A stretch of 37,714 nucleotides of DNA from IMG/VR virus record IMGVR_UViG_2526164601_000037; one strand, written 5' to 3'. A model generated the notes under the pieces. The model searched no databases. It saw only the letters and a program-made list of their open reading frames with translations, and was not told where the DNA came from. Below, piece by piece: positions 10,033 to 37,383 of this stretch (position 1 is the first letter of the stretch; every line of letters starts with the position of its first letter). Origin of the DNA: a virus. Lineage: Duplodnaviria; Heunggongvirae; Uroviricota; Caudoviricetes. A program made the translations under genes and the position numbers.

Positions 10033-10036
10033 ACCA

Positions 10037-15429: not shown

Positions 15430-15583
15430 TGCTCCCCCTGAGTAATTACAGGAAGATTACCCGCGCGCGAAACCGTTCTCCTTAACCCCCTGTTCTGGCC
15501 ATTTTCTTACAACAAAAGCCCTTTGTATCAGCCTGTTACGCTTTGCCATCATGACTGAAGAACCAGTCAGAGGGGCAAAAACT
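15430..15583. promoter_or_regulatory. Divergent late promoter region between P and O
   Basis: Intergenic region between divergently transcribed late operons; no specific activator site could be confirmed by eye. Confidence 0.35.
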
Positions 15584-16420
15584 ATGGCTAATGAAAAAAA
15601 GACATCACGCAAAAAGTTTCGCGTGGCTGTCTCCGGTGTAACGGCAGACGGGCGCGAAATCAACGGCGACATGCTGAAAGCTGCCGCCACCAGTTATAAC
15701 CCGTCCGTTTATGGTGCACGTGTGAATATTGAGCACATCCTGTCACCACTCCCCGGTAGCGAGTTTTCCGCTATGGGCGATGTTGTGGGGTTGAGCACCG
15801 AAGACATAACCGATGGCCCGCTGGCAGGCCGCACGGCACTGTATGCCGAAATTGAGCCGACCGCTCGCATGATGTCCCTGCTTAACGATGGTAAAAAAAT
15901 TTACTCCAGTATTGAGCTGGAACCACAGTCAACCATCACGGGAGGCCCTTACCTGCGCGGGCTGGCAATGACCGACACCCCTGCCAGCCTGGGCACGGAA
16001 CGTCTGGCCTTTGCGGCACAACAACGTATGCAACTGATGACATTCAACTGTCAGCAGGGAGACGTGGCGATGTTTACCGCCGCTATGGAGTCAGAACTTA
16101 TCGAACTCACCGAACAACGTCAGGAAGAAGGCACCCAGTGGTTTAACCGCGTTATGGGGATTATTGGCCGTGGCCGCAAAGCGGATGACGCCAGTTTCTC
16201 CCGTATTCAGGAAGCGGTGGAAGGTGTCGCAACGTCACAGGCCGACATTATCGACCGTTTTAATGCGCTGGAAACCCGCCATCAGCAGGACAGCCAGAAA
16301 ATCACTTTACTGACCACAGAGCTGACAGCACTGAAGGAAAAACTGCGCACGCAGGACGGCGATCCGCAGAACCGGTTCACCGCAACAGGCGCAGCCTCCG
16401 ACCAACTGGCTGACTTCTGA
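15584..16420 (+). CDS. O: Capsid scaffolding protein, P2 gpO-like
   Basis: ORF 15551..16420 trimmed to the ATG at 15584 (RBS GAGGGG); N-terminus resembles P2 O as recalled. Confidence 0.8.
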   Translation: MANEKKTSRKKFRVAVSGVTADGREINGDMLKAAATSYNPSVYGARVNIEHILSPLPGSEFSAMGDVVGLSTEDITDGPLAGRTALYAEIEPTARMMSLLNDGKKIYSSIELEPQSTITGGPYLRGLAMTDTPASLGTERLAFAAQQRMQLMTFNCQQGDVAMFTAAMESELIELTEQRQEEGTQWFNRVMGIIGRGRKADDASFSRIQEAVEGVATSQADIIDRFNALETRHQQDSQKITLLTTELTALKEKLRTQDGDPQNRFTATGAASDQLADF

Positions 16421-20408: not shown

Positions 20409-20862
20409 TTCCCTGCGTGAAGCCATGACCCGTTCATGCCGATGGTGTCAGGCCAACCCGGAAAAATTCACCATTTTCGTGGAGAGCGGCAACATTGAAA
20501 CGACCGGAGAAACTCCCTCGTTTGTTTACCGCTATCAGATGGTGATGTTTGTCATGGATTACGCCGGGGAGCTGGACGACCTCACGCTGCCGCTGCTGGC
20601 GTGGTTATCCGAAAATCAGCCACAGTTGTTGCTCAACCCTGAGCGTAATCAGGACATCAAATTCTCCGCCGTTATCAATGACGATGACAGCGCCGATCTC
20701 CTGTTTACGCTCCCCCTGCGGGAACGCGTTCGCATCACGCGCAGCAGTCAGGGCACACCGCAGGCAGAACACCTGCCGGAGCCAAAACCCCGCCTGCCAT
20801 CTTCCGAAGGCGACTGGTCGCATGTATTCCAGGATGTGACGTGGGGTGAAAGCGATGGATAA
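20395..20862 (+). CDS. R: Tail completion protein, P2 gpR-like
   Basis: ORF track, 155 aa; position after the lysis genes. Confidence 0.75.
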   Translation: MLKTDSLREAMTRSCRWCQANPEKFTIFVESGNIETTGETPSFVYRYQMVMFVMDYAGELDDLTLPLLAWLSENQPQLLLNPERNQDIKFSAVINDDDSADLLFTLPLRERVRITRSSQGTPQAEHLPEPKPRLPSSEGDWSHVFQDVTWGESDG

Positions 20863-21490
20863 GGCATTCACCCGCGTGGATGAAACCTTTGAGGCTATCC
20901 GCGACAGCCTGAATCAGCAGGCCATCAATAACATCGCCAGAAAGCTGGCACAGGATTTACGTCGCGCCCAGCAGGCACGTATCCGGTCACAGAAAGCGCC
21001 GGACGGGACTGCATGGACACCACGCAGACGCCGCGTAACCCGGATACAGGAGCGCATTCGCTTTATCTGGAATAACGAAGCACGCACGCTGAAAAACTGG
21101 CATCACGACACGGGGAAATACGGGCGAACCATTACCGGGTGGGATGAGGATAAAAACAATATCCGCACGTTTTACCGGGATGACATCGACCGTTTTCTGG
21201 AAATACGCACCCGGCGCATCAACCAGGACAGCACAAAGCGCGTCCCCATGTTCGTAAAACTGCGCACCGCCCGCTACCTGAAAGCCCGTGCAGATGCTTC
21301 CGGTGTGACGGTGGGTTACAGCGGCGTGGCCGCACGTATTGCCCGCGTTCATCAGTTCGGTGAGCGCGATCAGGTTGCGCCGGGCATTTTCACCGATTAC
21401 CCGGTACGTGAGCTGTTGGGTATCAGCCAGGCAGATGAGCGCCTGATTTATAACACGGTGCTGGGCCGGATTGCGGAGGCTGTACGGTGA
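20855..21490 (+). CDS. S: Tail completion protein, P2 gpS-like
   Basis: ORF 20846..21490, ATG at 20855 overlapping the R stop; position before V. Confidence 0.7.
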   Translation: MDKAFTRVDETFEAIRDSLNQQAINNIARKLAQDLRRAQQARIRSQKAPDGTAWTPRRRRVTRIQERIRFIWNNEARTLKNWHHDTGKYGRTITGWDEDKNNIRTFYRDDIDRFLEIRTRRINQDSTKRVPMFVKLRTARYLKARADASGVTVGYSGVAARIARVHQFGERDQVAPGIFTDYPVRELLGISQADERLIYNTVLGRIAEAVR

Positions 21491-22068
21491 GCGCTGAACT
21501 CATGCGACTGCTGAGCAACATCATCCGTACCGGGATCATCTCTGAAGTTGATGAGGAATCCTGGTGCGTGCGCGTTCGCAGCGGCGAACTGGAAACAGGC
21601 TGGCTGCGCTGGAACACCACGCGCGCGGGTGCCTTCAATGTGTGGTTGCCGCCATCACCCGGCGAACAGGTGGTAATTGCCTGCATCGGCGGCAACCCGG
21701 AAACCGCCATGATAATTGGCAGTCTGTGGAGTGATGCCATTCCGGCACCCGGCAAAAGCCTGAAAGAAATCGTGGTCAGCGCGCCGGATGGCGCGGTGTT
21801 CCGCTACGACGCGGACGCAGGCGCACTGAGCGCCAGCGGCATGAAAACGGCCACCCTGCAGGCATCCGTCAGTGTGACACTGGACACACCTGTCGTGGAA
21901 TGCACAGACCTTCTGAGAACAGCGACGCTTGACGTCACAAAAGGAGGAAAGATGAGCGGCAATATCACGCACAGCGGCGGCAACTTCACCTCAAACGGCA
22001 TTACCGTGCATACGCATAAACACGGTGGCGTGAAAGGCGGCAGCGATTCGACAGGAGGCCCGCAGTGA
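21487..22068 (+). CDS. V: Baseplate spike/assembly protein, P2 gpV-like
   Basis: NIIRTGIISEVD and PSPGEQVVI motifs resemble P2 V as recalled; GTG start at 21487, alternative ATG at 21502. Confidence 0.85.
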   Translation: MSAELMRLLSNIIRTGIISEVDEESWCVRVRSGELETGWLRWNTTRAGAFNVWLPPSPGEQVVIACIGGNPETAMIIGSLWSDAIPAPGKSLKEIVVSAPDGAVFRYDADAGALSASGMKTATLQASVSVTLDTPVVECTDLLRTATLDVTKGGKMSGNITHSGGNFTSNGITVHTHKHGGVKGGSDSTGGPQ

Positions 22069-23315: not shown

Positions 23316-23916
23316 TTCACTGTTACCACCATCAGCCAGCAATTTCATGCGTTGTGCCGAAGCCGTCGGAACACGCATTACAGACATTCCGGTAGACCTC
23401 AACACGCTGTGGTCGCCGGACACCTGCCCGGCGCATCTGCTGCCTTATCTCGCCTGGGCGTTTTCCGTTGACCGCTGGGATCGCAACTGGCCGGAAGAGA
23501 CAAAGCGACAGGTGATTCGTGATGCATGGCTGATACACCGACACAAAGGGACCATCAGCGCACTGCGAAGAGCCGTGGAGCCTCTCGGCTACCTGATTGA
23601 AGTAAAGGAGTGGTGGCAACTCAACGAGGAGCCAGGAACATTTCGCATTGTTGTCGGAGTACTTGATCAGGGCATCACCGATGAAATGTATCAGGAACTT
23701 GAGCGCCTTATTGCGGATGCAAAACCAGTAAGTCGCCATCTGACAGGGCTGGCGATCAGTCTGAGTGTGAACGGAAAGATTTTCGTTGGTACGGGATGCT
23801 ATCACGGCGATGCCCTGACGGTTTATCCCTACACCCCGGAGTCCATTATTGTCGAAGGGGATTATTTCCCTGCCCCGGCCATTCATTTAATTGATAATCT
23901 GAGAGTAAACGCATGA
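23308..23916 (+). CDS. I: Baseplate protein, P2 gpI-like
   Basis: ORF 23275..23916 trimmed to the ATG at 23308 overlapping the J stop. Confidence 0.75.
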   Translation: MSNSLLPPSASNFMRCAEAVGTRITDIPVDLNTLWSPDTCPAHLLPYLAWAFSVDRWDRNWPEETKRQVIRDAWLIHRHKGTISALRRAVEPLGYLIEVKEWWQLNEEPGTFRIVVGVLDQGITDEMYQELERLIADAKPVSRHLTGLAISLSVNGKIFVGTGCYHGDALTVYPYTPESIIVEGDYFPAPAIHLIDNLRVNA

Positions 23917-25526
23917 CAGTGAAATACTACGCCATTCTGACTAATCAGGGCGCGGCACGACTGGCTAACGCGACGATGCTCGGCAGTAAGCTGAATCTGA
24001 CGCAAATGGCCGTTGGTGATGCAAATGGTGTGTTACCAACACCAGACCCTGCACAAACAAAACTGATTAACCAGAAACGCATTGCACCGCTGAATCTTCT
24101 GAGTATTGACCCGAACAACCAGAACCAGATTATCGCGGAGCAAATCATCCCTGAGAACGAGGGCGGATTCTGGATCCGTGAGATTGGTCTTTATGATGAT
24201 GAAGGCGTACTCATTGCGGTGGCAAACTGCCCGGAAACGTACAAACCGCAGTTGCAGGAAGGCAGTGGACGCACCCAGACTATCCGCATGATTCTGGTTG
24301 TCACGAACACCGAAGCCATCACGCTGAAAATCGACCCGTCTGTGGTTCTGGCAACCCGCAAATATGTGGATGACAAAATCTCAGAGCACGAGCAGTCACG
24401 ACGTCACCCGGACGCCTCGCTGACCGCAAAAGGTTTTACTCAGTTAAGCAGTGCAATTAACAGTGAATCAGAAACACTGGCCGCAACACCGAAAGCGGTT
24501 AAGACTGCATATGACCTGGCTAACGGGAAATATACCGCCAAGAACGCCACCACAACACAAAAAGGGATTGTTCAGCTCAGTAGCGCCACAAACAGCACGT
24601 CTGAAACGCTGGCAGCGACACCAAAAGCTGTTAAGGCGGTAATGGATGAAACGAGCAAGAAAGCCCCATTAAACAGCCCGGCACTGACCGGAACGCCAAC
24701 AACACCAACAGCGCCACAAGGGACTAATAGTACCCAGATCGCAAGCACGGCTTTCGTTATGGCCGCGATTGCCGCACTTGTAGATTCGTCACCTGATGCA
24801 CTGAACACGCTGAACGAACTGGCTGCGGCGCTGGGCGATGACCCGAATTTTGCGACCACCATGACTAACGCGCTTGCGGGTAAGCAACCGAAGGATGCCA
24901 CCCTGACGGCGCTGGCGGAGCTTGCTACAGCAGCAGATAAACTCCCATATTTTACAGGGGCAGATCGTGCCGCGTTAACCGCGTTGACAAGTGTTGGACG
25001 TGCCATTCTTAGTAAGCCCAGCACACAGGGAGTTCTTGATTATCTTGGTTTGGGAGAAGGCTCTGCATTGCCTGTTGGTGTACCGATTCCGTGGCCTTCT
25101 GCTACTCCGCCGACAGGCTGGCTGAAATGCAATGGTGCTGCCTTTGATAAAGTGAAATATCCCAACCTTGCCAAAGCATACCCGTCAGGGAAACTGCTGG
25201 ATTTACGCGGTGAGTTTATTCGTGGATGGGATGACGGGCGTGGTATTGATGCAGGACGTGCTTTATTGAGCATTCAGGCTGGGATGCTGGAGAAGCACCG
25301 CCATATTGTTGTTGCCAACGATGGTTATGATTCAGGTGAAGAATGGGAGTTGGCTACAATTTTTCAGAATACATACACACAAGGTCGGGGGCTTGACGCC
25401 GTTTATACAGGGGGAACCCTTATTCCGGCTCCGAGGTTGCATTCACGAGGAAGTATTGGTAACACGGGCGGGAGCGAAACACGACCGCGCAATATTGCAT
25501 TTAACTTTATTGTGAGGGCTGCATAA
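23913..25526 (+). CDS. H: Tail fiber protein, P2 gpH-like
   Basis: ORF track, 537 aa; internal tandem repeat SETLAATPKAVK typical of tail fibers; position after I. Confidence 0.85.
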   Translation: MTVKYYAILTNQGAARLANATMLGSKLNLTQMAVGDANGVLPTPDPAQTKLINQKRIAPLNLLSIDPNNQNQIIAEQIIPENEGGFWIREIGLYDDEGVLIAVANCPETYKPQLQEGSGRTQTIRMILVVTNTEAITLKIDPSVVLATRKYVDDKISEHEQSRRHPDASLTAKGFTQLSSAINSESETLAATPKAVKTAYDLANGKYTAKNATTTQKGIVQLSSATNSTSETLAATPKAVKAVMDETSKKAPLNSPALTGTPTTPTAPQGTNSTQIASTAFVMAAIAALVDSSPDALNTLNELAAALGDDPNFATTMTNALAGKQPKDATLTALAELATAADKLPYFTGADRAALTALTSVGRAILSKPSTQGVLDYLGLGEGSALPVGVPIPWPSATPPTGWLKCNGAAFDKVKYPNLAKAYPSGKLLDLRGEFIRGWDDGRGIDAGRALLSIQAGMLEKHRHIVVANDGYDSGEEWELATIFQNTYTQGRGLDAVYTGGTLIPAPRLHSRGSIGNTGGSETRPRNIAFNFIVRAA

Positions 25527-26128
25527 TGAATCACGCGGTATTAAATAATGAACTTATTGCCGTGCAGGAAGGAAACATTATCGTTTACAACTATGACAGT
25601 GAGACGCGGGAATATATTTCTGCATCAACTGAATATCTTGCTGTGGGTGTCGGTATTCCGGCATATTCCTGTTTAGACGCTCCTGGCACACATAAGGCTG
25701 GTTATACAATTTGCCGTTCTGTGGATTTAAAATCATGGGAATATGTGTCAGACCATCGTGGTGAAATTGTCTATAGCACCGAAACAGGGGAATCAAAAGA
25801 AATTAAAACTCCGGGTGATTACCCTGAAAATACAACCACTATCGCCCCGTTAACGCCATACGATAAATGGGATGGTGAGAAATGGGTGACAGATACTGAG
25901 GAGCAACATCACGTCGCAGTAGAGACGGCAGAAACACAGCGCCAGTCGCTGATTGATGCCGCAATGGCTTCCATTAGTCTGATTCAACTGAAATTACAGG
26001 CCGGGCGGAAGCTGATGCAGGCAGAGACCTCCCGACTTAACACTGTGCTGGATTACATTGACGCGGTGACGGCAACAGATACCAGCACCGCGCCGGATGT
26101 CATCTGGCCTGAACTGCCGGAGGCGTAG
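25526..26128 (+). CDS. G: Tail fiber assembly chaperone, P2 gpG-like
   Basis: ORF track, 200 aa; C-terminal Tfa-type motif DTSTAPDVIWPELP. Confidence 0.8.
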   Translation: MNHAVLNNELIAVQEGNIIVYNYDSETREYISASTEYLAVGVGIPAYSCLDAPGTHKAGYTICRSVDLKSWEYVSDHRGEIVYSTETGESKEIKTPGDYPENTTTIAPLTPYDKWDGEKWVTDTEEQHHVAVETAETQRQSLIDAAMASISLIQLKLQAGRKLMQAETSRLNTVLDYIDAVTATDTSTAPDVIWPELPEA

Positions 26129-26351
26129 GCCATTCAATATCTGGCGCACTGGAAGTATCGACCAGTTCCAGTGCGTCCAGATAATCCAGCCACAAATTAT
26201 ATTGCGCCAGTTCCTCACCTTTCAGACGACCAATAGCCGCTTTACCGGGCCATTGTTTACTGTTCATGTATTCGTTGGTCTGATTAATCAGTTGCTGTTT
26301 TTTGATGGGGCCGACTAAAGACAGTCGCGACAGGAAACAACTGGCAATAAT
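26100..26351 (-). pseudogene. Remnant of a second tail-fiber-assembly (Tfa) gene C-terminus, convergent with and overlapping the end of G
   Basis: Minus-strand frame open 26351..26103 translates to ...KQQLINQTNEYMNSKQWPGKAAIGRLKGEELAQYNLWLDYLDALELVDTSSAPDIEWPTPP, matching the Tfa C-terminal motif of G (LDYIDAVTATDTSTAPDVIWP); no full-length gene. Confidence 0.5.
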
Positions 26352-26438
26352 TTACGGCATTGGTACATCGACGATTTATCGTTACCACCCCGCAGGAGAA
26401 TCAAGCGGAACAATTGAGAAGAGTCAGGAAACAAAATA

Positions 26439-26470
26439 ACCGCTAATCTGGCCATTAGCGGTTTTTGTGT
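26439..26470. terminator. Bidirectional intrinsic terminator between convergent G and U
   Basis: Stem ACCGCTAAT / ATTAGCGGT with loop CTGGCC, flanked by A-run upstream and TTTTTGTGTT downstream. Confidence 0.6.
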
Positions 26471-26474
26471 TAAA

Positions 26475-26969
26475 TCAGAACAGCCCTTTAACGGAACTGG
26501 CCGCGCTGTTAAGGGATGATGTCACCTTATCTTTGAAGCCGCACAGCATATCGCTGAACGATGAAGATTGCAGGCGCTCCCGCAAATCCTCATCACAGCG
26601 TTCAAGAGTCAGTGAAAATTCTATCTTTTTCGCCTTACCGTAGCGATCAAACTCGGAACGGGTCGTATTCGTTTCAGTCAGTACATACATGCCGTAAATC
26701 TGCCCGACACCATCAATCAGAGGCCAGGGGCGTCCTGTATATGCCTGCGTGGTCAGCAACGAAAGCGACACTTCGCCACCTGTAATTTCAGGATAAAGCA
26801 CGCCGGAAAGCACGATGCGATCATCACCTGCGCCGATATACTGCCAGCTTGCTGAACGGTTAACGCGTTCATTTTTCACATGCCGCCAGCTTTTGTTTTG
26901 CTGTAACTGCTGATGCGGCAATGTGCGCAGCTCAAAAACAAACATGCCGTAGATCATCATCATGGCCAT
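26475..26969 (-). CDS. U: Tail protein, P2 gpU-like
   Basis: N-terminus MAMMMIYGMFVFELRTLPHQQLQQNKSWRH resembles P2 U as recalled. Confidence 0.85.
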   Translation of the reverse strand: MAMMMIYGMFVFELRTLPHQQLQQNKSWRHVKNERVNRSASWQYIGAGDDRIVLSGVLYPEITGGEVSLSLLTTQAYTGRPWPLIDGVGQIYGMYVLTETNTTRSEFDRYGKAKKIEFSLTLERCDEDLRERLQSSSFSDMLCGFKDKVTSSLNSAASSVKGLF

Positions 26970-26975
26970 GACTCC

Positions 26976-29819
26976 TCAATCTTTATCGTAAAAACTGCCA
27001 CGTCCGGCACGGTCGCGTCGTTCCAATTCTGCCCTGACCATTTCACCGACCAGTTTCGCCAGTTCGCGGGGATTCTGCGTAACAACGTTATGCAGATGAA
27101 CATGAATTTCACCGCCAAATCCGGAGGCAACAGGCTCCCGGTTACGGGAAGTTGCAGGAACTGATGCCACTGGCGATCGTATGGCCTCCGCCACCGGGCG
27201 GGAGCTGGCCGTAACAACAGGGACCAGCGCCGGAGGCAGCGGAGCCGGAACCACGGGTGTGATCTTAATTGCGGGGGCAGGCTTACTGACCTGCGCAATC
27301 TTCCGCTCCTGCCACTCCCCACGAACAGCAAGTGCGCGGGGCAGGTTCTTAAAGACAATATCGCCAGGGCCAATGCGTTTTTTCGTCTCATCAACCAGCT
27401 TACCTGTGTTATCAGCAATCTTGCTGAGTCTGCGTAGCGTACCGGTATTGCTGTCTGTGAGCGGTTTGTTGTCTTTGGGTTTATCGCCTCCGGTGCCATT
27501 GCCATTTTCCGCAGACTTCGGCGGATTGATTTTCGCAATGTCCCCCTGAAGCAAGGCAACCTTGTCCTGAAGAATGGCCGCACGCTGTGCGTCTTCGATT
27601 TTCTTTCCCGCCCTTTCCGCTTCATCCGGAAGCACACCGAGTTTTTCAAGTATCCACGCCAGCGTATCCAGCAACATTTTTGCAGGCGTCAGAACAAGCT
27701 GTAACGCACCGCCAAGAACGTTACCGAATACCTCGCCAGCACTGGCACATTTATCCAGCGTTTCCTTGCTGGACTCCATCGGTGACAGCAGCGATTTAAA
27801 CCAGTTAAACACCTGGCTGATCCCGCTTCCGATTACGTCAAAAACAGGGCCAAACCGTTCAAAGGTTTCGCGCAACGGGGTCAGCCTTTCCATAATCCCG
27901 CTGAACACCCCGGCAAAAAATGCCCTGATGGGATCCCAGTATTTCCAGATAAGAACGGCAGCTCCGGCAAGCGCAGCCACGATAAGACCAACCGGACTGA
28001 ACAGCGCCCCGATAGCGCCTCCCAGTAAAGAAACGGAACCCGTCACCATTCCCCATAGTGCTGGCAGGACCCTGACAGCATTCATTGATCCGGTCAGGAG
28101 AGAAAAACCAAGACGCAGTTTTGCCAGCGGACCAGCAAGCACACCAATAGCCAGCGACAACGAGCCAACCGTTGCAGTCATTGCCAGCAACGCACCGCCT
28201 GCTATCAGTAGCTGGCGCGTCAGTGCCGGATGGGCCTGCGCCAGCGCCGTCACCCTTGATACCACCCGCGCGAGCCACTGCGTGACAGAACGCAGCGGAC
28301 CGTCAATCAGATCTGCAATGCGGATGCGCAACCCTTCCCATGCACTGCCGAGTGATTTCAGATCGCCGTCAAGGTTGTTGGCCATAACCTTTGCTGTGCG
28401 TTCAGCCTCACCGCGCGCGCCTTCAAGTTCTTTTCTCAGTTTGGGTAAGGAACCGTCACCCGCTGCATCAACGAGCGCCATAAACGATGTGAATGCCTCT
28501 TCTCCGGCAATGTCCTTAAAGAACGATACCCGGTCAACTTCCCCGTATTTGCGGGTGGCTTTATAAAGGTCGGCCAGCACATCTTCCATCGGGCGCATTT
28601 TGCCCCCGGCATCCGAGACGGACACGCCCAGCTCTTTCAGAGCTTCTGCCGCCGCCTTTGGCGGTGATGCCAGACGAGCCAGGCTGGCACGCATTGCCGT
28701 CCCGGCATCACTCCCTCTGATGCCCATATTCGCCAGCACGCCAGCCATCGCTGCGGCCTGTTCCAGCGATATTCCCAGCTTACCCGCCACCGGACCTGCA
28801 TATTTCATGGTTTCGCCCAGTGCGCGAAGGTCAGTGTTGGTACGGGTAAACGCTGCGGTGAGTGTGTCACCGACCCGGTCCATCTGGTCAGCAGAAAGGC
28901 CGAACTGCGTCAGGATATTTGAGCCAATATCTGCCGTCTCGCCGAGATCCATACCGCCAGCCGTTGCCATGCTCAGCACGCCGGGAAGCGCAGCCTGAAT
29001 GGCCTGCGGAGTGAAGCCAGCCATTGCAAGAAATGCCTGTCCACTGGCGGCATCGCCTGCGGTGAACTGCGTTTCAGAGCCAAGTTTTAACGCCTGCTCA
29101 CGCAGCGCCTTAAACTGCGGGCTGTTCTGGTCGATTCGCGTCAGTGCCTGAACGCGGGACATCTCTTTGCCGAACCCGATCGCAGGCTGCAAAAAACGCC
29201 CGGCAGCATAGCCGCCCGCCGCTGCCGCACCAATTGCCAGCGCACCACCTGTTTTCAGTTTTCCCGCTGTTTCCTGCGCGCGCGAATACCGCTCACGCGC
29301 CCGCGTTACACGCGCAAGCGCCTGCCGTTCGCGTTCAAGCTGGTTGTTGTACTGTTCGGTGCGTCTGATGGCCTGCTGGATGGTGTTATCGCTGCCTGTC
29401 AGGGAAATGCCGTGGCGTTTCAGCTCTCCGCCAAGCTCCCGCATTTTCTGAATTTCCCGTGTGCGCGATTCATTCAGGCGTTCAAGCCGGGTGCTTAACT
29501 GCTGCATCAGCTTTTGTTGTTTTTCGCTGAGCACTGTACCCGTGCGTTGTAACTGATTAAGGGCGTTAAGCTGGCGTCGTGCTTTCACGATACCCGCATC
29601 CGCTTTACTGACAGCGTCGCGGGCGCGCTCAAATGAACGCGCCTGACGCTCGAGATTTTTGATCGCCCCCTGCGTTCGCTGGATGGAGTCACCAAACTGC
29701 CCCATCAGGCGGCGTGCGTTTTCGGCAGGTCGGGTCAGCCTGTCAACGGCGCTGAAAGCGACCCGGATATCAAGAGTCTTCATTGTCTGCATTCCCGCTG
29801 CGAAGTGCCGCCCGCTCAC
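26976..29819 (-). CDS. T: Tail tape measure protein, P2 gpT-like
   Basis: ORF track, 947 aa; Ala/Gly-rich hydrophobic stretches typical of tape measure proteins; position between E/E' and U. Confidence 0.85.
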   Translation of the reverse strand: MSGRHFAAGMQTMKTLDIRVAFSAVDRLTRPAENARRLMGQFGDSIQRTQGAIKNLERQARSFERARDAVSKADAGIVKARRQLNALNQLQRTGTVLSEKQQKLMQQLSTRLERLNESRTREIQKMRELGGELKRHGISLTGSDNTIQQAIRRTEQYNNQLERERQALARVTRARERYSRAQETAGKLKTGGALAIGAAAAGGYAAGRFLQPAIGFGKEMSRVQALTRIDQNSPQFKALREQALKLGSETQFTAGDAASGQAFLAMAGFTPQAIQAALPGVLSMATAGGMDLGETADIGSNILTQFGLSADQMDRVGDTLTAAFTRTNTDLRALGETMKYAGPVAGKLGISLEQAAAMAGVLANMGIRGSDAGTAMRASLARLASPPKAAAEALKELGVSVSDAGGKMRPMEDVLADLYKATRKYGEVDRVSFFKDIAGEEAFTSFMALVDAAGDGSLPKLRKELEGARGEAERTAKVMANNLDGDLKSLGSAWEGLRIRIADLIDGPLRSVTQWLARVVSRVTALAQAHPALTRQLLIAGGALLAMTATVGSLSLAIGVLAGPLAKLRLGFSLLTGSMNAVRVLPALWGMVTGSVSLLGGAIGALFSPVGLIVAALAGAAVLIWKYWDPIRAFFAGVFSGIMERLTPLRETFERFGPVFDVIGSGISQVFNWFKSLLSPMESSKETLDKCASAGEVFGNVLGGALQLVLTPAKMLLDTLAWILEKLGVLPDEAERAGKKIEDAQRAAILQDKVALLQGDIAKINPPKSAENGNGTGGDKPKDNKPLTDSNTGTLRRLSKIADNTGKLVDETKKRIGPGDIVFKNLPRALAVRGEWQERKIAQVSKPAPAIKITPVVPAPLPPALVPVVTASSRPVAEAIRSPVASVPATSRNREPVASGFGGEIHVHLHNVVTQNPRELAKLVGEMVRAELERRDRAGRGSFYDKD

Positions 29820-30299
29820 GCCAGCTAACCACTTCGCCGGGCGTCATCATGAAGATTTCGGCGGGCGACCAGTTAAAAATAACGGCAATATCTGCCACAA
29901 AGTCTTCTATGTGCTCAAAGCACACAACCGTGATCAGGCTTCCGTCGCCTGTTCGTTCTTCCCGCCAGAGTCCGCACCGCTCAAAAAATTTACGGCAACC
30001 ACACATAACTGAATAAAGTCACGGGATGCCATTTTTTTGATCGTCACTTCATCCAGTCGCGGTGATGTCACGCGTGACAGCAGCGAAAACATGGATTCCG
30101 CTTTCAGACTCAGCACATCAGACAGCGACAAATCTCGCAGAGATCCAGCCTGCTCAATAGCCCCGGTGATCTCCACATACGTGATTTTTTCGCCGCTTCG
30201 CTCAATTGGTTGGGTAAGTTTTACGCCACGCTCACTGGTTTCTTTCACAGTGTCAGTAACTACCGTGTTTTCGGTATCGATGTTTTTCGTCTCTTTCAT
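29770..30299 (-). CDS. E': E+E' fusion produced by programmed -1 ribosomal frameshift
   Basis: Slippery heptamer T_TTT_TTG on the minus strand (plus-strand caaaaaa at 29982..29988), 16 codons before the E stop; the -1 frame continues as FFERCGLWREER... to 29770, overlapping the T start as in P2. Confidence 0.7.
29934..30299 (-). CDS. E: Tail assembly chaperone, P2 gpE-like (0 frame)
   Basis: ORF track; C-terminus VAVNFLSGADSGGKNEQATEA spans the slippery site. Confidence 0.8.
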   Translation of the reverse strand: MKETKNIDTENTVVTDTVKETSERGVKLTQPIERSGEKITYVEITGAIEQAGSLRDLSLSDVLSLKAESMFSLLSRVTSPRLDEVTIKKMASRDFIQLCVVAVNFLSGADSGGKNEQATEA

Positions 30300-30353
30300 C
30301 AGGAAACTCCTTTCAGTCAGAGGCGACGCACTGCGCCGCCTGCATATTACTTA

Positions 30354-30866
30354 TCAGCCAAGCCCAAGCGCGGAACGGATGCGATCGGGCACAATGTCCT
30401 TGCCGTCCTTCCGGTAAATGAAGTTCAGCAGGTCAATCTCCCACAACGGGCGATCGTTAACACTCAGCTTGTAGTAGGTGTTTTTAATGGCATAAGTGTG
30501 TGATGTGGCTTCGCCCTGTTTGGCTTCCCCCATATCAATTTCCGTCACACGTCCGCGCATTTCGACTTCATACAGATCGCTTTCTGCATCGGTGTAGTAT
30601 TCACCCGCAAAACGCAGCAGTGTGCCGTCAATCGTGCCGCCATACTTAAGGAACAGCTCACGAACTGCGCCCCCCATGACAAAGCTCGCATCAAGCGCGG
30701 AGTCGTCCAGGCCGAGATCAATACTTACCGCCCCCATCATGCCACCACCCCGGTAGCTGTCGGTTTTGCGCGTCAGCTTAGGCAGAGTGACGGACGTCAC
30801 CTTACCCACTTCGTTTTCACCATCCACAAACAGCGTAAAAAAGCGAAGATGTTTTGGCACAGCCAT
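30354..30866 (-). CDS. FII: Tail tube protein, P2 gpFII-like
   Basis: ORF track, 170 aa; position between sheath and E. Confidence 0.85.
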   Translation of the reverse strand: MAVPKHLRFFTLFVDGENEVGKVTSVTLPKLTRKTDSYRGGGMMGAVSIDLGLDDSALDASFVMGGAVRELFLKYGGTIDGTLLRFAGEYYTDAESDLYEVEMRGRVTEIDMGEAKQGEATSHTYAIKNTYYKLSVNDRPLWEIDLLNFIYRKDGKDIVPDRIRSALGLG

Positions 30867-32050
30867 CAGGCACCTCCCAGCACCGCAAATGCGGGTTCAA
30901 AGTATTCATCAGTAAACGTCTGGTAAAGCTCCATGTCTTCCAGTGGCGGAACGGGCGTATATTTGTAGCGAATACGCACACGTCCCTGACGTAAATCCGT
31001 GGTGCTGTTATCCACCACGTCATACCAGCACTCCGCGCCAATCAGTTTCCCGGCAGTAACCAGTGAATCCAGTTTTGCCCTGATGGCACTGATAACATCC
31101 TTCACGTTCGCAGGCGTCAGTGGACTGTCGATGGTTTCAAACTGCGCTTCCGCAATTGAATCAGCCAGCACCTGTGCGGTTCGGGTATACACCTCAAAGA
31201 TGTAGGCGTTCGTTTCCGGTGTGCGGTTGCCCCAGAAGCGGAACCCGTTGCGACGAATAATGGTCGTGATTTCTTTGTTGTTGAGGCTGTTGGCATCGCT
31301 GTCTTCGGCCTGCAACGACCAGAACACATGCCTCGACATCCCCAGCACATTTTTAACCGGAACGTTGGACAGTGATTTGTGCCATCCCTGCTCATGGTCA
31401 ATGTACGCACGAAGGCCGCACGCATAGGCAGACGCGGGGAACGTTTCGTTTTTGCCACTTTTCGGGTTGTAGGCGATGAAGTCCGGCCATAAGAGCATCA
31501 CCTCACGTTCGTTGAATTTCTGGCGGTAGGTAATCGCCTCAGCCATCGTGTTACAGCCGTGACATGAGGCATACACAAACGCGCGCAGTTTACCTGCAAT
31601 CACGCACAGGGATTTTGTTACAGCCTCCGTGTCCAGCTCCGGCGCGGCCAGAATACGCGGACGGTATCCGATGCTTTCATCCTGCTCTGCAACAAGCAGC
31701 GCATACATCCCCGTATAGCTGCCGTCATCCTCAGAACCACCGATAACCAGTTGATCCTGCGTCTTTCCGTCTTCTTCTTTGTGTTCAGCCACGCGAACGA
31801 CGATCACCTTTGTGCTCACCTGGTCTGCGATGGCCTTAAGCGCACGATAAAGCGTCCCCGTTGTCCCGCATTTTCCCAGCACGTCATTGACGCGGGTCAG
31901 CAGTGTGGGCTTGTTCAGCGGGAACAGCTTCGCGTCCGCATCATCCGCCGTTGCCACGATACCGATAACGCTGGAATCAACATCGTTAATCGCTGTTACC
32001 AGGTCGGTATTTTCCGTAACACGGGCACCATGAAAACGAGTTTCACTCAT
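30866..32050 (-). CDS. FI: Tail sheath protein, P2 gpFI-like
   Basis: ORF track, 394 aa; first gene of the minus-strand FI-FII-E-T-U block. Confidence 0.85.
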   Translation of the reverse strand: MSETRFHGARVTENTDLVTAINDVDSSVIGIVATADDADAKLFPLNKPTLLTRVNDVLGKCGTTGTLYRALKAIADQVSTKVIVVRVAEHKEEDGKTQDQLVIGGSEDDGSYTGMYALLVAEQDESIGYRPRILAAPELDTEAVTKSLCVIAGKLRAFVYASCHGCNTMAEAITYRQKFNEREVMLLWPDFIAYNPKSGKNETFPASAYACGLRAYIDHEQGWHKSLSNVPVKNVLGMSRHVFWSLQAEDSDANSLNNKEITTIIRRNGFRFWGNRTPETNAYIFEVYTRTAQVLADSIAEAQFETIDSPLTPANVKDVISAIRAKLDSLVTAGKLIGAECWYDVVDNSTTDLRQGRVRIRYKYTPVPPLEDMELYQTFTDEYFEPAFAVLGGA

Positions 32051-32207
32051 AGCTTCAGCCCCTTGTATCCGTTAAATGATTCGGCAACAATCATCACCCA
32101 CCACGCGCGTAATCTCACCCCTGCGCCGTTCTCCCGCCACGGCGACAACAAAAAGCAGTAACCCCCTCCGCACGCACATGCGACCATGCCGCACAGGGAG
32201 GGAACAG

Positions 32208-33308
32208 ATGACCGATACCACCATGCAATTGCTCAGTCAGGGCACAGACCCCGTGAAAATGCCGGATTTTGATATTCTCGCGGAGGGTAAAACGCTGTCA
32301 GGCGTGGCAGAGCGCCTGATGAGCCTGTCACTGACCGACAACCGGGGATTTGAGGCGGACCAGCTCACCATCACGCTGGATGATGCGGATGGTCAGTTGC
32401 AGCTACCGCCACGGGGCGCGCGCCTGACGGTTCTCATTGGCTGGAAAGGAGAACCGCTGACAGAAAAAGGCACTTACATTGTTGATGAAATCGCTCACGA
32501 AGGACCGCCGGACAGGCTGACTGTTTCAGCCAGAAGCGCAGATTTTCGGGATGAATTTAACGTTAAACGTGAGGTGTCCTGGCATGATGTGACCGTTGAG
32601 CGTGTGGTATCCGCCATCGCTCATCGATGGTCTGAAACCGCAAATCAGCGAAATGCTGATGGATATCGAAATCGACCACGCCGACCAGACCGAAGAAAGC
32701 GACATGTCCTTTCTTACGCGCATGGCGGAAATGCTGGGCGCAATCACCACCGTAAAAAGCGGCAATCTGTTATTCATCATGCCAGGTGGTGGCGTGAACG
32801 CACAGGGCCAGCCGTTGCCCTCGTTCGCCATTACACGCAGCAGCGGCGATCGCCATCAGTTCCGTATTGCTGACCGCGAGGCGTATACGGGGGTACGCGC
32901 TTACTGGCTTGATCTTAATTACGGGAAAAAGAAAAAGTCAGCGTGAAACGCCGCAAACCGCCAAAACCCAAAAAGGAGAAAAGCAGCAGCCGTGAAGGTG
33001 ATTATATGGAAGGCGCGGAAGGAAATGTGTTTGTGTTACGCAAGACTTATCAGAACGAGCAGGCAGCAAGACGCGCTGCGGCGGCAAAGTGGCAGCAGCT
33101 ACAACGCGGAGCCGCATCATTCTCCATCACGCTGGCGCGTGGACGTGCAGAACTCTACCCCGAAATGCATGGCACGGTAACAGGATTTAAAAGCGAGATT
33201 GATAATCAGGACTGGATTATTGCAAAAGCCGAGCACACCATTGATAACAGTGGCTTTACCACGCAGCTTGAGCTTGAGGCAAAAATCCCGGAATGGATAG
33301 CAGAATGA
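32208..33308 (+). pseudogene. D: Gene D (P2 gpD-like tail/late protein) interrupted by two frameshifts
   Basis: gpD similarity runs through three frames: 32208 to about 32625 (LSLTDNRGFEADQL, SARSADFR), about 32626..32946 (FLTRMAEMLG, ITRSSGDRHQF, AYTGV), and 32943..33308 (GDYMEGAEGNVF, NSGFTTQLELE). Second shift lies in the A-run gggaaaaagaaaaag (32923..32937). Confidence 0.55.
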
Positions 33309-33472: not shown

Positions 33473-34108
33473 TTAGCGAGCTAATATATTCAAAGAATTT
33501 AACAATTGAGTGTCGAGTGTTTCAGTTGCAGGAATCGGTAATCCATTCGCAATGCGGTAATTTTTCACAGACAGCCTTGTGGATGGCCCCATTATGCCGT
33601 CAATATTTCCGTTATAAAATCCCCTGTCCAGCAATGCGAACTGAACTCGCATAATCAATCGCTTACGTTTCTCTGCATCAGAAGCAAGCCCATTACTCGT
33701 ACGGTTAACCTCTGAAGTTCCAACAGAACTCGTGTTAGTGGTTCTATTATTATCGTTAGAACGAAGTGCACGCACCGAGGAAGAGGACGATGAGGAACTT
33801 GCACCTGAACTTGAAGAACCAGATGAACTTGGTGAGCTGTATGTTTTTGGATAATAGGGGGTACTTCCACCATAGTATCCACCACCTGATGAGGATCTAT
33901 GAGAGCTATGGCTCCTATGAGAGCTATGGCTTCGATGCCCTGCGATATAAAATGGGACTTCCGTGTTAAGTGGAGCTATCACTAAATCATGCTCATTAAG
34001 AGTCATACCAGGTAAATCACTCGCTCCTGTAGATGAATCGCTTGCCCATACAGAATTGTTGAGAGCCAAAAATCCCGGAAGTAGAGCAGCAAAATTAAAC
34101 TTTTTCAT
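33473..34108 (-). CDS. hxsA: His-Xaa-Ser repeat protein (HxsA-like precursor) with signal peptide, Ser-rich tract and C-terminal peptidoglycan-binding-like domain
   Basis: Start at the ATG at 34108 (MKKFNFAALLPGFLALNNSVWA); repeats HRSHSSHRSHSSHRSSS; poly-Ser tract; C-terminal LDRGFYNGNIDGIMGPSTRLSVKNYRIANGLP. ORF-track frame extends upstream to 34186. Confidence 0.7.
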   Translation of the reverse strand: MKKFNFAALLPGFLALNNSVWASDSSTGASDLPGMTLNEHDLVIAPLNTEVPFYIAGHRSHSSHRSHSSHRSSSGGGYYGGSTPYYPKTYSSPSSSGSSSSGASSSSSSSSVRALRSNDNNRTTNTSSVGTSEVNRTSNGLASDAEKRKRLIMRVQFALLDRGFYNGNIDGIMGPSTRLSVKNYRIANGLPIPATETLDTQLLNSLNILAR

Positions 34109-35217
34109 AAAATTGGTCTCGGTGATTGATGAAAACGGCCTTTTGAGGAACTGAAATAGCCAGCACAGGAAGGCTTCTGAGTACATTCATCACATTCTTT
34201 TGGATAGTAATTTTTCCAATCAGAGATCGACTGAACAGCAAGCTCCCTAGCCCTTTCAGGAAGATAACACAAAGGATAATTAAAAATTGTCAGAGGTATG
34301 CCTGACCTGTATGCAGCGTCTATGGCAGAGATTATTTTCTCACTATAACTACTGTGATCAATGAAGATGGTGGACCAGTTTTTTCGTGCCCAACCGATAG
34401 GCTCCAACCCCATAAGGGAAATCTGATTGATGTTGGAGAACACACGGCCAGCGAATTCTACAATATCATCCAATTCGGTATAGTTAGCCAGTGTAGGAAT
34501 AACTCTAAGTTCGATATTAATCCCCAAGTTTCCTGCATTGATTAACCCTTTAACCGTTTCATTAAATGCGCCATCACTCCCTACCAGATGATCATGCACA
34601 AGTGGTCTTGATGAGTAGAGCGGGATACCAAAGGTGATTTTGATCTTTTTGCTTCGCTTTGCCATTTCCTGTGTAAAGTTGATATCAGCAAATTTGCGTC
34701 CGTTTGTTAAAACATGTAAAGCAGTATCTGGTGAATTCTCGATGATAAAGTCAATGAAGTGAAGGAAGTCATCCCCATATAGCAAAGGTTCACCACCGCT
34801 GACCCCAACAACTCCGTTCAAGCCAAATGAAGCTATAGCAAGAGCTGATTGGGTAAGTAGCCAGTCATCATTTATTTTCTTTGGTGGCTGCGAACAAAAC
34901 AGACACAAGTTATTGCAGCGTTCCGTAACTAAGACAGTATTATGATTGGCTTTGCGTGACAGAATAACGCGTATCATATTGCCATTGTTGATTATCCCAA
35001 TATCTCCATCTTCAATTGACTCAAATAATTCAGTGCTAATAACAGAGAAATCAAAGCATGGTGGAATGGCATCATTATTGCCTTCAGCAACTACTAGCAA
35101 ATTGGGCAAAAAGAATAAAGGGTTCACTGGTTTTTGTTTGCATAACCGATAGAACCCCGTGGGCACGTTCTCTGTAGAAGCAAAATGAAAGATATCGTTC
35201 CTGATAACCTCAGACAT
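34105..35217 (-). CDS. hxsC: Radical SAM maturase of the His-Xaa-Ser system (HxsC-like; B/C assignment tentative)
   Basis: CNNLCLFC (CX3CX2C) cluster motif, GGEPLL SAM-binding motif, C-terminal Cys cluster CDECTQKPSC; overlaps neighbours by a few nt. Confidence 0.8.
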   Translation of the reverse strand: MSEVIRNDIFHFASTENVPTGFYRLCKQKPVNPLFFLPNLLVVAEGNNDAIPPCFDFSVISTELFESIEDGDIGIINNGNMIRVILSRKANHNTVLVTERCNNLCLFCSQPPKKINDDWLLTQSALAIASFGLNGVVGVSGGEPLLYGDDFLHFIDFIIENSPDTALHVLTNGRKFADINFTQEMAKRSKKIKITFGIPLYSSRPLVHDHLVGSDGAFNETVKGLINAGNLGINIELRVIPTLANYTELDDIVEFAGRVFSNINQISLMGLEPIGWARKNWSTIFIDHSSYSEKIISAIDAAYRSGIPLTIFNYPLCYLPERARELAVQSISDWKNYYPKECDECTQKPSCAGYFSSSKGRFHQSPRPIL

Positions 35218-36598
35218 ATGCCCATCCTTTTAGCATCTCAGCCTTCGAACCACCCTCTGAGATGCAGTTCATCAGATACCTGAACATCCCCTTGTGGTAT
35301 TGACAAAACGTTGAACGACTCCTATCACCGACAGGCTCACCCTGTACACTTATGTTCTGGCATGGATCTGAACCACAAAATGGTTGATATGCACATGTAT
35401 CACAACCTGGCAGAGCAAAATTGAACGATGAACTCAATACTGCGTTATAGTAAGGACTATCAGAAAATGATAGCGTCTTAACTTCACCCGCACTGAACTC
35501 CATTTCAGGATTCACCTTCTGCAACATACGGCTCTCATCGCTACCATATACTCGACCGTCATAATTGAAAAGAATACTGTTAAGCACGACTCCACTTGGA
35601 GACTTTAAATCCGCATAACCACTAAAACCGGGATTGAAGATCCTTTTCAGATGAATGGAGGCCGAATGTTCCACAACCCTTATCCCTTCATTATTAATCT
35701 TAAGGATTTCATCTATCAACGAGGCATAGAAGCTGAAGTATTCGTCCATAGAAAAGGTGAAAGAAGCTTTTTGTGCAAACCCATAGGGACTAACAGGTCG
35801 GATAAACATGTCCTTGAGACCAAGAGACAAGTGAGCCTGAACAATCGATTCAGGACGTCTGATAAGCTCTTTAGTAACTGTAGTAACCGTTGCAACGCGG
35901 CCAGCACCTAAAGAGTGTTTGATAGCCTCCACCCCTGACACTGTTCTACTGTACGCAAGCCCACGACCAAGAATTCGATTACTGTTGTGAACAACTTCCT
36001 CACCATCAAGCGACACAGAGAACGTTATGTTCCGGTCTCTCGACCATTCAATCATATCCTCATTCAAGACAGACAGACTTGATGCCACCACCATCTCAAA
36101 ATTGGTTCTTCCCAGCGTTTCAGCACATTGATCATAGATGCTCTGAATTAAATCAAACCGCAAGAGAGGCTCCCCACCCTGTATCTCTATTTTGTAAGGT
36201 GGCGTTGATAGTTTTTTAATAGCCGAAATAATATCGGGGATGAGCTCAGGATTTAGGTCGTAACCTAAGGCATTAACAGAAGCTCTACTAACCTGGCAAT
36301 ACTTGCATGTATGGTCACAACGTAATGTGGGTACAATCATGAAAATTGGCCTGACAGCCAGTTCATTCATCAATCGTTTTGCAAAAGCAGAACTTAAAGC
36401 ATAGGGAGTTATAGCAGATGAGCTTTCACTGGTTATGAAAAGCTTACTTTCTAGCACGTTTGATTGCTCCGAACTAATTCGCTCATCAGAAAGATCAATA
36501 AGGTCTTGCTCACCAATGAAATGATGAAAACCTGCAAGGTTGCTTATAAACACCTGTCCATTAGGCAATCTGTCAAAATTAAATGGCATCAATTCCAT
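35210..36598 (-). CDS. hxsB: Radical SAM maturase of the His-Xaa-Ser system with SPASM-like C-terminal Cys cluster (HxsB-like; B/C assignment tentative)
   Basis: CDHTCKYC (CX3CX2C), GGEPLL, C-terminal CDTCAYQPFCGSDPC; start overlaps the hxsD stop. Confidence 0.8.
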   Translation of the reverse strand: MELMPFNFDRLPNGQVFISNLAGFHHFIGEQDLIDLSDERISSEQSNVLESKLFITSESSSAITPYALSSAFAKRLMNELAVRPIFMIVPTLRCDHTCKYCQVSRASVNALGYDLNPELIPDIISAIKKLSTPPYKIEIQGGEPLLRFDLIQSIYDQCAETLGRTNFEMVVASSLSVLNEDMIEWSRDRNITFSVSLDGEEVVHNSNRILGRGLAYSRTVSGVEAIKHSLGAGRVATVTTVTKELIRRPESIVQAHLSLGLKDMFIRPVSPYGFAQKASFTFSMDEYFSFYASLIDEILKINNEGIRVVEHSASIHLKRIFNPGFSGYADLKSPSGVVLNSILFNYDGRVYGSDESRMLQKVNPEMEFSAGEVKTLSFSDSPYYNAVLSSSFNFALPGCDTCAYQPFCGSDPCQNISVQGEPVGDRSRSTFCQYHKGMFRYLMNCISEGGSKAEMLKGWAYV

Positions 36599-36912
36599 TA
36601 TGAAAGTCTCTCATCAACACTGCGAAGCACTTTATGGACAATAGAGTCTCTCAACGCCCCTGTTTTATGCTGTAGCTTTTCTCGCAAAGAGTAATCATTA
36701 AGCAGCCTATCGAATTCATAAAGGAATTTGGGATTATCGTTTTCAAAAGAGATTATCCAGTGGGAAACGTCTTCATGGAGTTTCCATCGAGTAAGCGGAG
36801 TCATCCAATATAGACTATTGCGTATAACCCATTCAGAATATAGTTCTTTCTCAAACACTCTTTCGCTCATTGCAATTATCTTCCAATACAAATATTCATG
36901 ATCAGCAACCAC
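36598..36912 (-). CDS. hxsD: His-Xaa-Ser system protein HxsD-like
   Basis: Contains LLNDYSLRE, matching the LLNDYxLRE signature recalled for the HxsD family; first gene of the minus-strand cassette. Confidence 0.8.
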   Translation of the reverse strand: MVADHEYLYWKIIAMSERVFEKELYSEWVIRNSLYWMTPLTRWKLHEDVSHWIISFENDNPKFLYEFDRLLNDYSLREKLQHKTGALRDSIVHKVLRSVDERLS

Positions 36913-37122: not shown

Positions 37123-37383
37123 ATGTTCCGTTGTCCACTTTGTGGCGCATCTGCCCGTATCCGCACTAGTCGTCCGGAAAATGATTCAAACACTGTGCGG
37201 CAAAAGTATTACCAATGTAACAACCTAGAATGCGGCGTATGCTTCTCAACACTGGAAGCTTTCCATAAATTCACATCGAAACACGCCTCCGGCGCTCACT
37301 CTTCAGAAGGTATCCCGTGGCATGAACTGCCAGCTTCACACAAAGGAAACAATCAGATGAGTTTGCCCTTACCTCAAAATTAA
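37123..37383 (+). CDS. ogr: Late-gene transcription activator, Ogr/Delta zinc-finger family
   Basis: MFRCPLCGASARIRTSRPE...YYQCNNLECG matches the P2 Ogr pattern (MFHCPLC...ARTSR...QC.N..C) as recalled; RBS AGGGAGG. Confidence 0.85.
   Translation: MFRCPLCGASARIRTSRPENDSNTVRQKYYQCNNLECGVCFSTLEAFHKFTSKHASGAHSSEGIPWHELPASHKGNNQMSLPLPQN

Follow-up and report, generated by a model that had tools for sequence, protein, structure and literature searches.

Organization of the tail region

The window analysed here, that is, the whole stretch of viral DNA of 37,714 nt (IMG/VR record IMGVR_UViG_2526164601_000037), carries the tail genes FI, FII, E, E+E', T and U contiguous and co-oriented, as in the F (FETUD) operon of phage P2 (Table 1). 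The block lies on the minus strand (26475-32050), convergent with H and G and divergent from D. In the P2 record, by contrast, G, fun(Z), FI, FII, E/E', T, U, D and ogr follow one another on a single strand; the F operon comes after G and is oriented like the V-G operon, and the stop codon of U overlaps the start of D by 1 nt. In the window FI-U points the opposite way, and D, instead of being downstream of U, lies upstream of FI, at a distance of 157 bp and on the opposite strand. The initial annotation had described the block as inverted relative to P2, in agreement with the ORF list, the Pfam assignments and the annotation of the P2 record, and its description of D as set apart from U is equally correct.

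The internal order from FI to U is identical to that of the P2 F operon (FI-FII-E-E'-T-U-D, promoter pF). As in P2, a -1 frameshift on TTTTTTG produces E+E', whose frameshifted extension contains the Phage_P2_GpE domain (Pfam, 6.4e-12), and the stop of E' overlaps the start of T; the latter was set following P88 at the ATG at 29783, the open frame reaching a GTG at 29819. The proteins compared for the F operon are only 31-57% identical between P2 and the window. Over 383 aa, H shares 72% identity with its P2 counterpart.

Table 1. Features of the tail and late control regions, with window coordinates.
Feature	Position	Strand	Evidence and remarks
Second activator box, same type as the FI-D box	15494-15511	same as FI-D box	P-O spacer; internal reference for the FI-D box
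H, tail fibre gene	23913-25526	+	Pfam Phage_tail_fib, Phage_fiber_2, Collar; near end of rightward late operon
G, tail fibre assembly protein	25526-26128	+	Pfam Caudo_TAP, 2.2e-30; last intact gene of rightward operon
tfa' pseudogene fragment, C-terminal 68 aa	26100-26306	-	Caudo_TAP positions 71-130 of 131, 8.3e-18
Din-type serine DNA invertase remnant, C-terminal HTH, 39 aa	26320-26439	+	Pfam HTH_7, 4.1e-6
Predicted bidirectional intrinsic terminator	26438-26463		10-bp stem, U-run on both strands
U, tail protein	26475-26969	-	Pfam Phage_P2_GpU, 5.5e-39; last gene of leftward tail operon
T, tape measure protein	26976-29783	-	Pfam PhageMin_Tail; P88 annotation
E+E', 176 aa	29770-30299	-	-1 frameshift at TTTTTTG (29982-29988); product reconstructed
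E	29934-30299	-	P2 E match, 31% identity, 2.9e-8
FII, tail tube protein	30354-30866	-	Pfam Phage_tube, 7.5e-47
FI, tail sheath protein	30866-32050	-	Pfam sheath domains; first gene of leftward tail operon
Divergent late control region (FI-D spacer), 157 bp	32051-32207		Promoter functions inferred
-10-like GATGAT (P_F)	32090-32095	-	Predicted leftward start ~32083
Putative Ogr-type activator box	32130-32147		TCT-N12-ACA (TGT-N12-AGA on minus); centre between 32138 and 32139
-10-like GACCAT (putative P_D)	32182-32187	+	Predicted rightward start ~32194
D, baseplate hub (late control D)	32208-33308	+	Phage_GPD; sole plus-strand gene there, disrupted
hxsA-hxsC-hxsB-hxsD, His-Xaa-Ser radical-SAM system	33473-36912	-	NCBIfam TIGR03979, TIGR03977, TIGR03978, TIGR03976, all above cut-off
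ogr-type late activator, 86 aa	37123-37383	+	Pfam Ogr_Delta, 5.4e-14; 38% identical to P2 Ogr

Remnants between G and U and disruption of D

As for the claim that no fun(Z)-type gene lies between G and the block, no fun(Z)-sized ORF is present there, in contrast with P2, where fun(Z) separates G from FI; however, the 346-bp spacer does hold a tfa' fragment and a remnant of a serine invertase. The tfa' gene is an alternative, inverted tail-fibre assembly gene that is intact in JP538 and P88; in strain 96_1414B the stretch is identical to that of the window and is annotated as a partial gene (PGAP). At the position of the invertase remnant, P88 and JP538 encode a full recombinase of 195-199 aa, and the P88 copy has the Resolvase and HTH_7 domains, whereas the window remnant lacks the catalytic one (Pfam). 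Compared with JP538, 1128 bp are missing between positions 26290 and 26309, and these 1128 bp, which belong to the invertible tail-fibre cassette and its invertase, are likewise lacking with respect to P88. The G-U spacer represents what remains of an invertible tail-fibre cassette after its deletion, along with a truncated invertase.

In the relatives of the window, the cassette beside the block comprises the constant part of H, G, the inverted tfa' and H', the serine invertase and two crossover sites, resembling the Din-family segments of Mu (G/Gin), P1 (C/Cin) and e14 (P/Pin). Such a Din-type cassette flips the fibre tips only, not the FI-U block, and in the window it is reduced to two fragments with no crossover site left. 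The bidirectional terminator that had been placed between G and the block was recovered as a hairpin scoring on both strands (-15.7 and -16.1 kcal/mol; z -2.9 and -3.1). From its sequence, it is predicted to be common to the rightward unit, represented by the invertase remnant, and the leftward FI-U operon.

Gene D had been described as divergent from FI on the plus strand, and its orientation is confirmed; alignment with P88, JP538 and 96_1414B revealed two frameshifts, caused by the loss of 2 bp between 32626 and 32627 and of 1 bp in the A-run at 32932-32936. The intact D of P88 matches Pfam Phage_GPD above the cut-off (1.5e-17, 64 bits), and the third D fragment of the window scores 28.4 bits, just under the cut-off of 30.1. 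Both frameshifts are private to the window in the comparison with P88; the 2-bp deletion was present in none of 950 E. coli genomes, and the 1-bp deletion in one of 1127.

Conservation of the layout among P88-like phages

Over positions 26309-33305, the window is 97.7% identical to Escherichia phage P88, with the same gene order according to the P88 annotation. P88 was obtained as a phage by induction of E. coli K88 (PMC5285337). The order in P88 and Xuanwuvirus is H-G, the tfa'-H'-invertase cassette, U-T-E'/E-FII-FI on the opposite strand and then the divergent D, and that of the window is alike. Across the virion genes, the nucleotide identity of P88 and its relatives to the window is 95-98%, and their FI-D spacer is the same, 99.9% identical across the junction. 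These relatives are members of the genus Xuanwuvirus (Peduoviridae), for example 500465-2, 520873, 503458, PhiR44_2, Chuche and Citrobacter phage Shae_phiSM, and we take the window to be a P88-like phage of the Xuanwuvirus type within the P2-like group. By blastn, ~26 kb of the ~36.5-kb prophage aligns with P88 at 81-98% identity. Owing to the lack of alignment in the early region, the accessory regions and the hxs cargo, the overall similarity is roughly 68-70%; parts of the early region and of the A-Q accessory region differ between the two genomes. In ICTV practice, the threshold for a genus is about 70% nucleotide similarity over the whole genome; taken alone, the virion module, at 95-98%, falls clearly within this range.

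Of 5426 complete E. coli genomes, 1355 contain the 701-nt FI-D junction (coverage at least 80%), and collinearity extends over the full 8.5-kb region in 1042 records. In a species-level survey seeded with the FI protein of the window, which listed 57 loci and places the base of the inverted clade only roughly, all 23 listed loci with an FI 69-97% identical have the arrangement of the window, that is, ogr-D, FI-FII-E-T-U and H-I-J-W-V as successive units. They span about 13 genera of Enterobacterales (Salmonella, Citrobacter, Edwardsiella, Enterobacter, Kosakonia, Pantoea, Erwinia, Mixta, Izhakiella, Kluyvera, Trabulsiella, Serratia and Symbiopectobacterium), together with one 'Vagococcus' assembly that is probably contaminated. 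The P2 order, on the other hand, appears in every listed locus whose FI is 33-48% identical (34/34), in alpha-, beta- and gammaproteobacteria, and since all of these are collinear like P2, the collinear order is the outgroup state.

The layout is the standard, ancient one of the common P88-like (Xuanwuvirus) group and is not unusual. The initial annotation had implied an anomaly, such as a local rearrangement, a recombinase flip or a misjoin, a view that is not supported: the orientation is conserved in the close relatives, which the annotation itself had named as a refutation, and likewise in the E. coli genomes and in the listed loci with FI at least 69% identical. A block FI-U on the opposite strand with a divergent D is normal in the P88-like lineage and should not be read as a sign of rearrangement or misassembly. 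The layout belongs to a described phage genus and occurs in roughly one in four complete E. coli genomes; it carries little weight as a discovery. In the literature on P88, Xuanwuvirus, P2-like gene order and inversion, FETUD and the P2 hotspot we found no explicit description of the inversion, and the paper on P88 compares modules and never mentions their orientation. For annotators and prophage callers, the P2 gene order is an unsafe template for all P2-like prophages.

Origin of the inverted layout

We consider it very probable that, taken jointly, an ancient inversion occurred in place and its order was retained, that FETUD became two divergent late units, and that one Ogr box serves both. 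A segment with P_F and FI-FII-E/E'-T-U would have flipped in place in an ancestor of the Enterobacterales lineage, and this lineage would have retained the inverted order from then on, the inversion being neither switchable nor recent nor artefactual. The FETUD operon of P2 would thereby have been split into two divergent late transcription units. The proteins of the block have identities to their P2 counterparts (FI 46%, FII 42%, T 33%, U 46%) in the range of those of their neighbours (Q 47%, P 44%, N 41%, V 46%, W 44%, J 55%); because the block is no further from P2 than its neighbours, and because the E/E' frameshift and the E'/T overlap were kept, an in-place inversion is favoured over a foreign module.

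A replacement of the original sheath-tube-tape-measure module by that of another contractile-tail phage, inserted in the opposite orientation, would explain why FI to U are merely 31-46% identical to P2, and modular exchange is common in temperate phages. We regard it as improbable, given that the flanking head, baseplate and D genes are equally far from P2 (37-57%), that the P_F box has the polarity of P2 and is of the same type as the window's own P-O box, and that the E/E'/T architecture is that of P2. A recent, strain-specific inversion of FI-U by the adjoining serine invertase, an IS element or recombination between inverted repeats is suggested by the invertase remnant right at the left boundary and by the working-looking invertase that intact relatives carry at the same place. 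Since the 1355 E. coli genomes share this orientation and it recurs in some 13 further genera, with FI identity down to 69%, a recent inversion is extremely improbable. Furthermore, no inverted repeats or invertase crossover sites pair the two boundaries (26129-26474 and 32051-32207); a search for inverted repeats linking them within 25900-32400 returned just short chance pairs and the terminator hairpin. The crossover core AAACC-NN-GGTTT is absent from the window, even with one mismatch, and its occurrences in P88 are confined to the two ends of the tail-fibre cassette, away from the block boundaries. The invertase was rejected as the cause of the inversion, since most loci with the inverted layout lack any invertase and the boundaries are free of crossover sites. 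As for a misjoin in the assembly of the source genome, nothing speaks for it beyond the difference from P2, except that the two private indels in D hint at problems of sequence quality; both junctions recur, base for base, in complete genomes assembled independently (identity to strain 96_1414B, 100% and 99.93%) and are also present in sequenced phage genomes, which leaves this explanation practically negligible.

The FI-D spacer and late control

Late promoters of the P2 type, which depend on Ogr/Delta, have a TGT-N12-ACA-like dyad whose centre is about 55 nt upstream of the start, and their -35 is weak or absent. The putative activator box in the spacer between FI and D has one mismatch to the P2 consensus TGT-N12-ACA. 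Exact matches to this consensus number 2 in the window, where chance alone would give about 10, and neither is at a late promoter; with one mismatch there are 174 against 180 expected. The bare consensus, not being enriched, is therefore uninformative, and the signal comes solely from an extended motif and from footprinting across genera. The extended motif, TTGTTGT-N12-AGAAC, is found in intergenic DNA of the window only in the P-O and FI-D spacers. Its GTTGT arm is distal to FI, as in the box upstream of FI at pF of P2. The FI-D box and both of its flanking blocks are conserved in 20 sequences, those of the window and 19 loci, from about 12 genera.

Each of the two hexamers of the FI-D spacer is located 43 nt from the centre of the box, a spacing held within 1 nt in 20 of the 20 sequences, even where indels occur elsewhere in the spacer, and the A2 and T6 of the hexamer are kept in all variants, of which there are five on the D side. 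The P-O spacer has a -10-like TAATCT 43 nt towards P and CCATCA/CATCAT 43-44 nt towards O; the shared-box model would place its starts near 15447 and 15558. In the P2 record, one Ogr/Delta activator site at 3057-3087 is annotated for pO and pP, whose starts, 3016 and 3127, are each 55.5 nt from its centre; this site is midway between the divergent late units, and the P-O spacer of the window appears to be organized likewise. The arrangement with a shared site is annotated in P2 only for P-O, whereas in the window we infer it for FI-D too. FI to U would be read leftward from P_F, stopping at the bidirectional hairpin, and D would be read rightward from the 157-bp spacer as a late unit of its own, with a single dyad-like Ogr box common to P_F and P_D at about 55 nt from each predicted start. 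D would not be left without regulation, as it adjoins a putative late activator box in what looks like a mirror-image arrangement of promoters.

We give about even chances to the proposal that the pF box moved with the block and now drives the divergent P_D from its other face, D having been rescued without a new regulator. The D-side hexamers, GACCAT and GATCCT, are weak and may have been conserved through shared ancestry or under other constraints, and the predicted leader of D, only about 14 nt long, counts against P_D. D might instead be expressed from its own promoter, constitutive or dependent on another factor and independent of the FI box, in which case the mirror geometry would be coincidental; the poor -10 matches of the D-side hexamers and a block rich in CGCGCGCG, which most genera conserve between box and hexamer, are in line with this. 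Nevertheless, such a promoter seems rather unlikely, considering that the 69 nt from the centre of the box to the ATG of D are too short for a second activator site at -55, that the spacer yielded no sigma-70 consensus promoter for D, that the spacing of 43 nt is so constant, and that pO and pP of P2 offer a precedent for a shared site. If the shared box serves both P_F and P_D, P88-like phages would run all their late genes from two bidirectional activator sites, P-O and FI-D, and would represent a natural case of operon splitting solved by the symmetric reuse of an activator site. The proposed two-box late regulation makes a small testable point on Ogr-type activators at divergent promoters.

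The hxs cargo

A PADLOC search with the hxs proteins and the four accessory ORFs between A and Q yielded just generic radical-SAM similarity to viperins. The hxsABCD genes are inserted between D and ogr and are not part of the tail block; in P88, which is devoid of this 3.8-kb cargo, the end of D joins the ogr region directly.

Gene order of the prophage and of its tail block

The window is a complete P2-like prophage, and Pfam bears out the identity of every gene in the tail block, D and ogr. The E/E' construction is the same as in P2, with a -1 shift at the slip site TTTTTTG (29982-29988) leading into an extension with the Phage_P2_GpE domain, whose end overlaps the start of T. In the P2 reference record the order is G, fun(Z), FI, FII, E/E', T, U, D and ogr, all on one strand except fun(Z), with U overlapping D. 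Compared with this record, the ORF map and Pfam confirm the initial annotation in that the FI-U block (26475-32050) is inverted relative to P2, convergent with H-G and divergent from D. The predicted hairpin between G and U is where the rightward unit and, from the other side, the leftward FI-U unit end.

Features of the prophage and of the region around the tail block
Feature	Position	Strand	Support
Integrase	1121-2263	-	
Early genes and replication gene A		+	
Q and P	12632-15429	-	
O to G, single long rightward run	ends 26128	+	
tfa' C-terminal fragment (final 68 codons of an additional tail-fibre assembly gene, in inverted orientation)	26100-26306	-	
Serine invertase remnant (last 39 codons, HTH)	26320-26439	+	
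Hairpin terminator	26438-26463	both	
U	26475-26969	-	Pfam
T	26976-29783	-	Pfam
E/E'	29770-30299	-	Pfam
FII	30354-30866	-	Pfam
FI	30866-32050	-	Pfam
D	from 32208	+	Pfam
hxsA-hxsC-hxsB-hxsD cargo cluster (His-Xaa-Ser radical-SAM), 3.8 kb, between D and ogr	33473-36912	-	4/4 NCBIfam equivalogs above cut-off
ogr	37123-37383	+	Pfam

Conservation of the inverted layout

A reading of the arrangement as an anomaly is not supported: it is almost certainly the conserved layout of a lineage, which is the outcome that the initial annotation had named as refuting its point. An 8.5-kb region is collinear with Escherichia phage P88 (Peduoviridae, genus Xuanwuvirus), induced from E. coli K88 (PMC5285337), at 97.7% identity; the P88 annotation has the same gene order and strands, and about a dozen further related phage records match the region, all collinearly. 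At least 80% of the region lies in one collinear place in 1042 records (complete E. coli genomes), a 701-nt probe of the FI/D junction is present in 1355 of 5426 complete E. coli genomes, and Klebsiella phages and Serratia phage KSP20 likewise span this junction. The layout is thus already known from deposited, classified genomes; we found no paper that discusses it or the inversion explicitly. A misjoin in the source assembly was rejected because both junctions recur at 99.9-100% identity in E. coli strain 96_1414B. The prophage of that strain carries IS600 in the 3' end of U (6586-7742 of its locus; about 26518-26520 in the window), an element missing from the window prophage, to which it is otherwise near-identical.

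Age and origin of the inversion

With FI as the query protein, the survey covered a single genome for each species, and we annotated the 57 listed loci by tblastn with window and P2 proteins. Among these, the layout is inverted in all 23 whose FI is 69-97% identical and follows P2 in all 34 whose FI is 33-48% identical, alpha- and betaproteobacteria included, so that the collinear order is the outgroup state. By this split, the sequences surveyed indicate that the inversion is the mark of one widespread Enterobacterales lineage, with representatives in Salmonella, Citrobacter, Edwardsiella, Enterobacter, Kosakonia, Pantoea, Erwinia, Mixta, Izhakiella, Kluyvera, Trabulsiella, Serratia and Symbiopectobacterium, together with one assembly labelled Vagococcus sp. 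WN89Y. In the latter, a 226-kb contig (NZ_JBQPOM010000071.1) carries this prophage type with FI 97% identical; this Gram-positive assembly with its enterobacterial prophage is probably contaminated or mislabelled.

The block could have been turned in place or have come in as a tail module from a foreign phage. Its proteins are 31-46% identical to those of P2 and those of the surrounding head, baseplate and D genes 37-57%; since the block is no further from P2 than its neighbours, an inversion in place appears favoured over an imported module. We searched for an inverted repeat joining 26129-26474 to 32051-32207 and found no pairing. The G-U spacer (26100-26439) is not empty intergenic DNA but the wreck of an invertible tail-fibre cassette of the Mu-G/P1-C type, of which relatives such as strain JP538 and P88 have the full set (tfa', H' and invertase) at this position, whereas the window keeps only the C-terminal fragment of tfa' and the HTH tail of the invertase; 1128 bp of the cassette present in JP538 are missing. 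The invertase was nevertheless rejected as the cause of the block orientation, because P88 has the crossover core AAACC-NN-GGTTT at both ends of the fibre cassette and nowhere else, and most inverted loci of the survey lack the invertase altogether. No copy of this core is left in the window.

The FI/D spacer and predicted expression of D

The FI/D spacer (157 bp) contains TTGTTGT-N12-AGAAC on the minus strand (core 32130-32147), a predicted box for an Ogr-type activator found in the intergenic DNA of the window only here and in the P/O spacer (15430-15584; box 15494-15511). Aligning the spacers of 19 inverted-layout loci (about 12 genera) with that of the window, we found conservation of the box, of a -10-like GATTAT/GATGAT towards FI and of a block towards D, the -10-like hexamer beginning 43 nt from the box centre on each side. 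The window has GATGAT towards FI and GACCAT towards D; other genera have AATCAT, GATCCT, GATCGT or AATTAT on the D side, all keeping A2 and T6. In the P/O spacer, TAATCT on the P side and CCATCA/CATCAT on the O side stand 43-44 nt from the box. In the P2 record, pO and pP have one annotated activator-binding site between them (3057-3087), and their transcripts begin at 3016 and 3127, each 55.5 nt from the dyad centre. This matching geometry indicates that the FI/D spacer repeats the P2 pO/pP design, and we lean slightly towards one Ogr box being shared by two divergent late promoters, which would start at about 32083 and 32194. A second box at -55 would not fit into the spacer, and a search of it revealed no sigma-70 consensus promoter that could serve D. 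As -10 matches the D-side hexamers are weak, and shared ancestry may account for part of their conservation.

By the same box geometry, transcription of O is predicted to start near 15558, such that its start codon is probably the ATG at 15584, rather than the ORF's first ATG (15551). The ATG at 15584 is the annotated O start in P88 and is preceded by GAGGGG.

Mutations in D, cargo and other features

D (32208-33308) has a 2-bp deletion at 32626|32627 and a 1-bp deletion in the A-run 32932-32936, which together shift the reading frame for about 100 codons before it is regained. The 2-bp deletion occurs in none of 950 E. coli genomes and the 1-bp deletion in one of 1127, and near-identical 96_1414B has neither; the alternatives are a recent inactivation of the gene, making it a fresh pseudogene, and sequencing error.

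The hxs cluster is complete and inserted as cargo; PADLOC did not recognise it and gave only generic viperin-like radical-SAM matches. As the cluster is missing from P88 and its place in JP538 is taken by a different gene of 606 nt, the interval between D and ogr seems to be a site at which this lineage takes up cargo.

The genes S and V share 4 nt (21487-21490), and neither an orf30-type gap nor a third activator box lies in the region around them (20846-22068); a separate pV may therefore be absent from P88-like phages, with O through G read as a single unit. Genes at 9073-10346, downstream of replication gene A and 97% identical to P88, are ParM-like segregation and partition genes according to the P88 annotation; these are unusual for an integrating P2-like phage.
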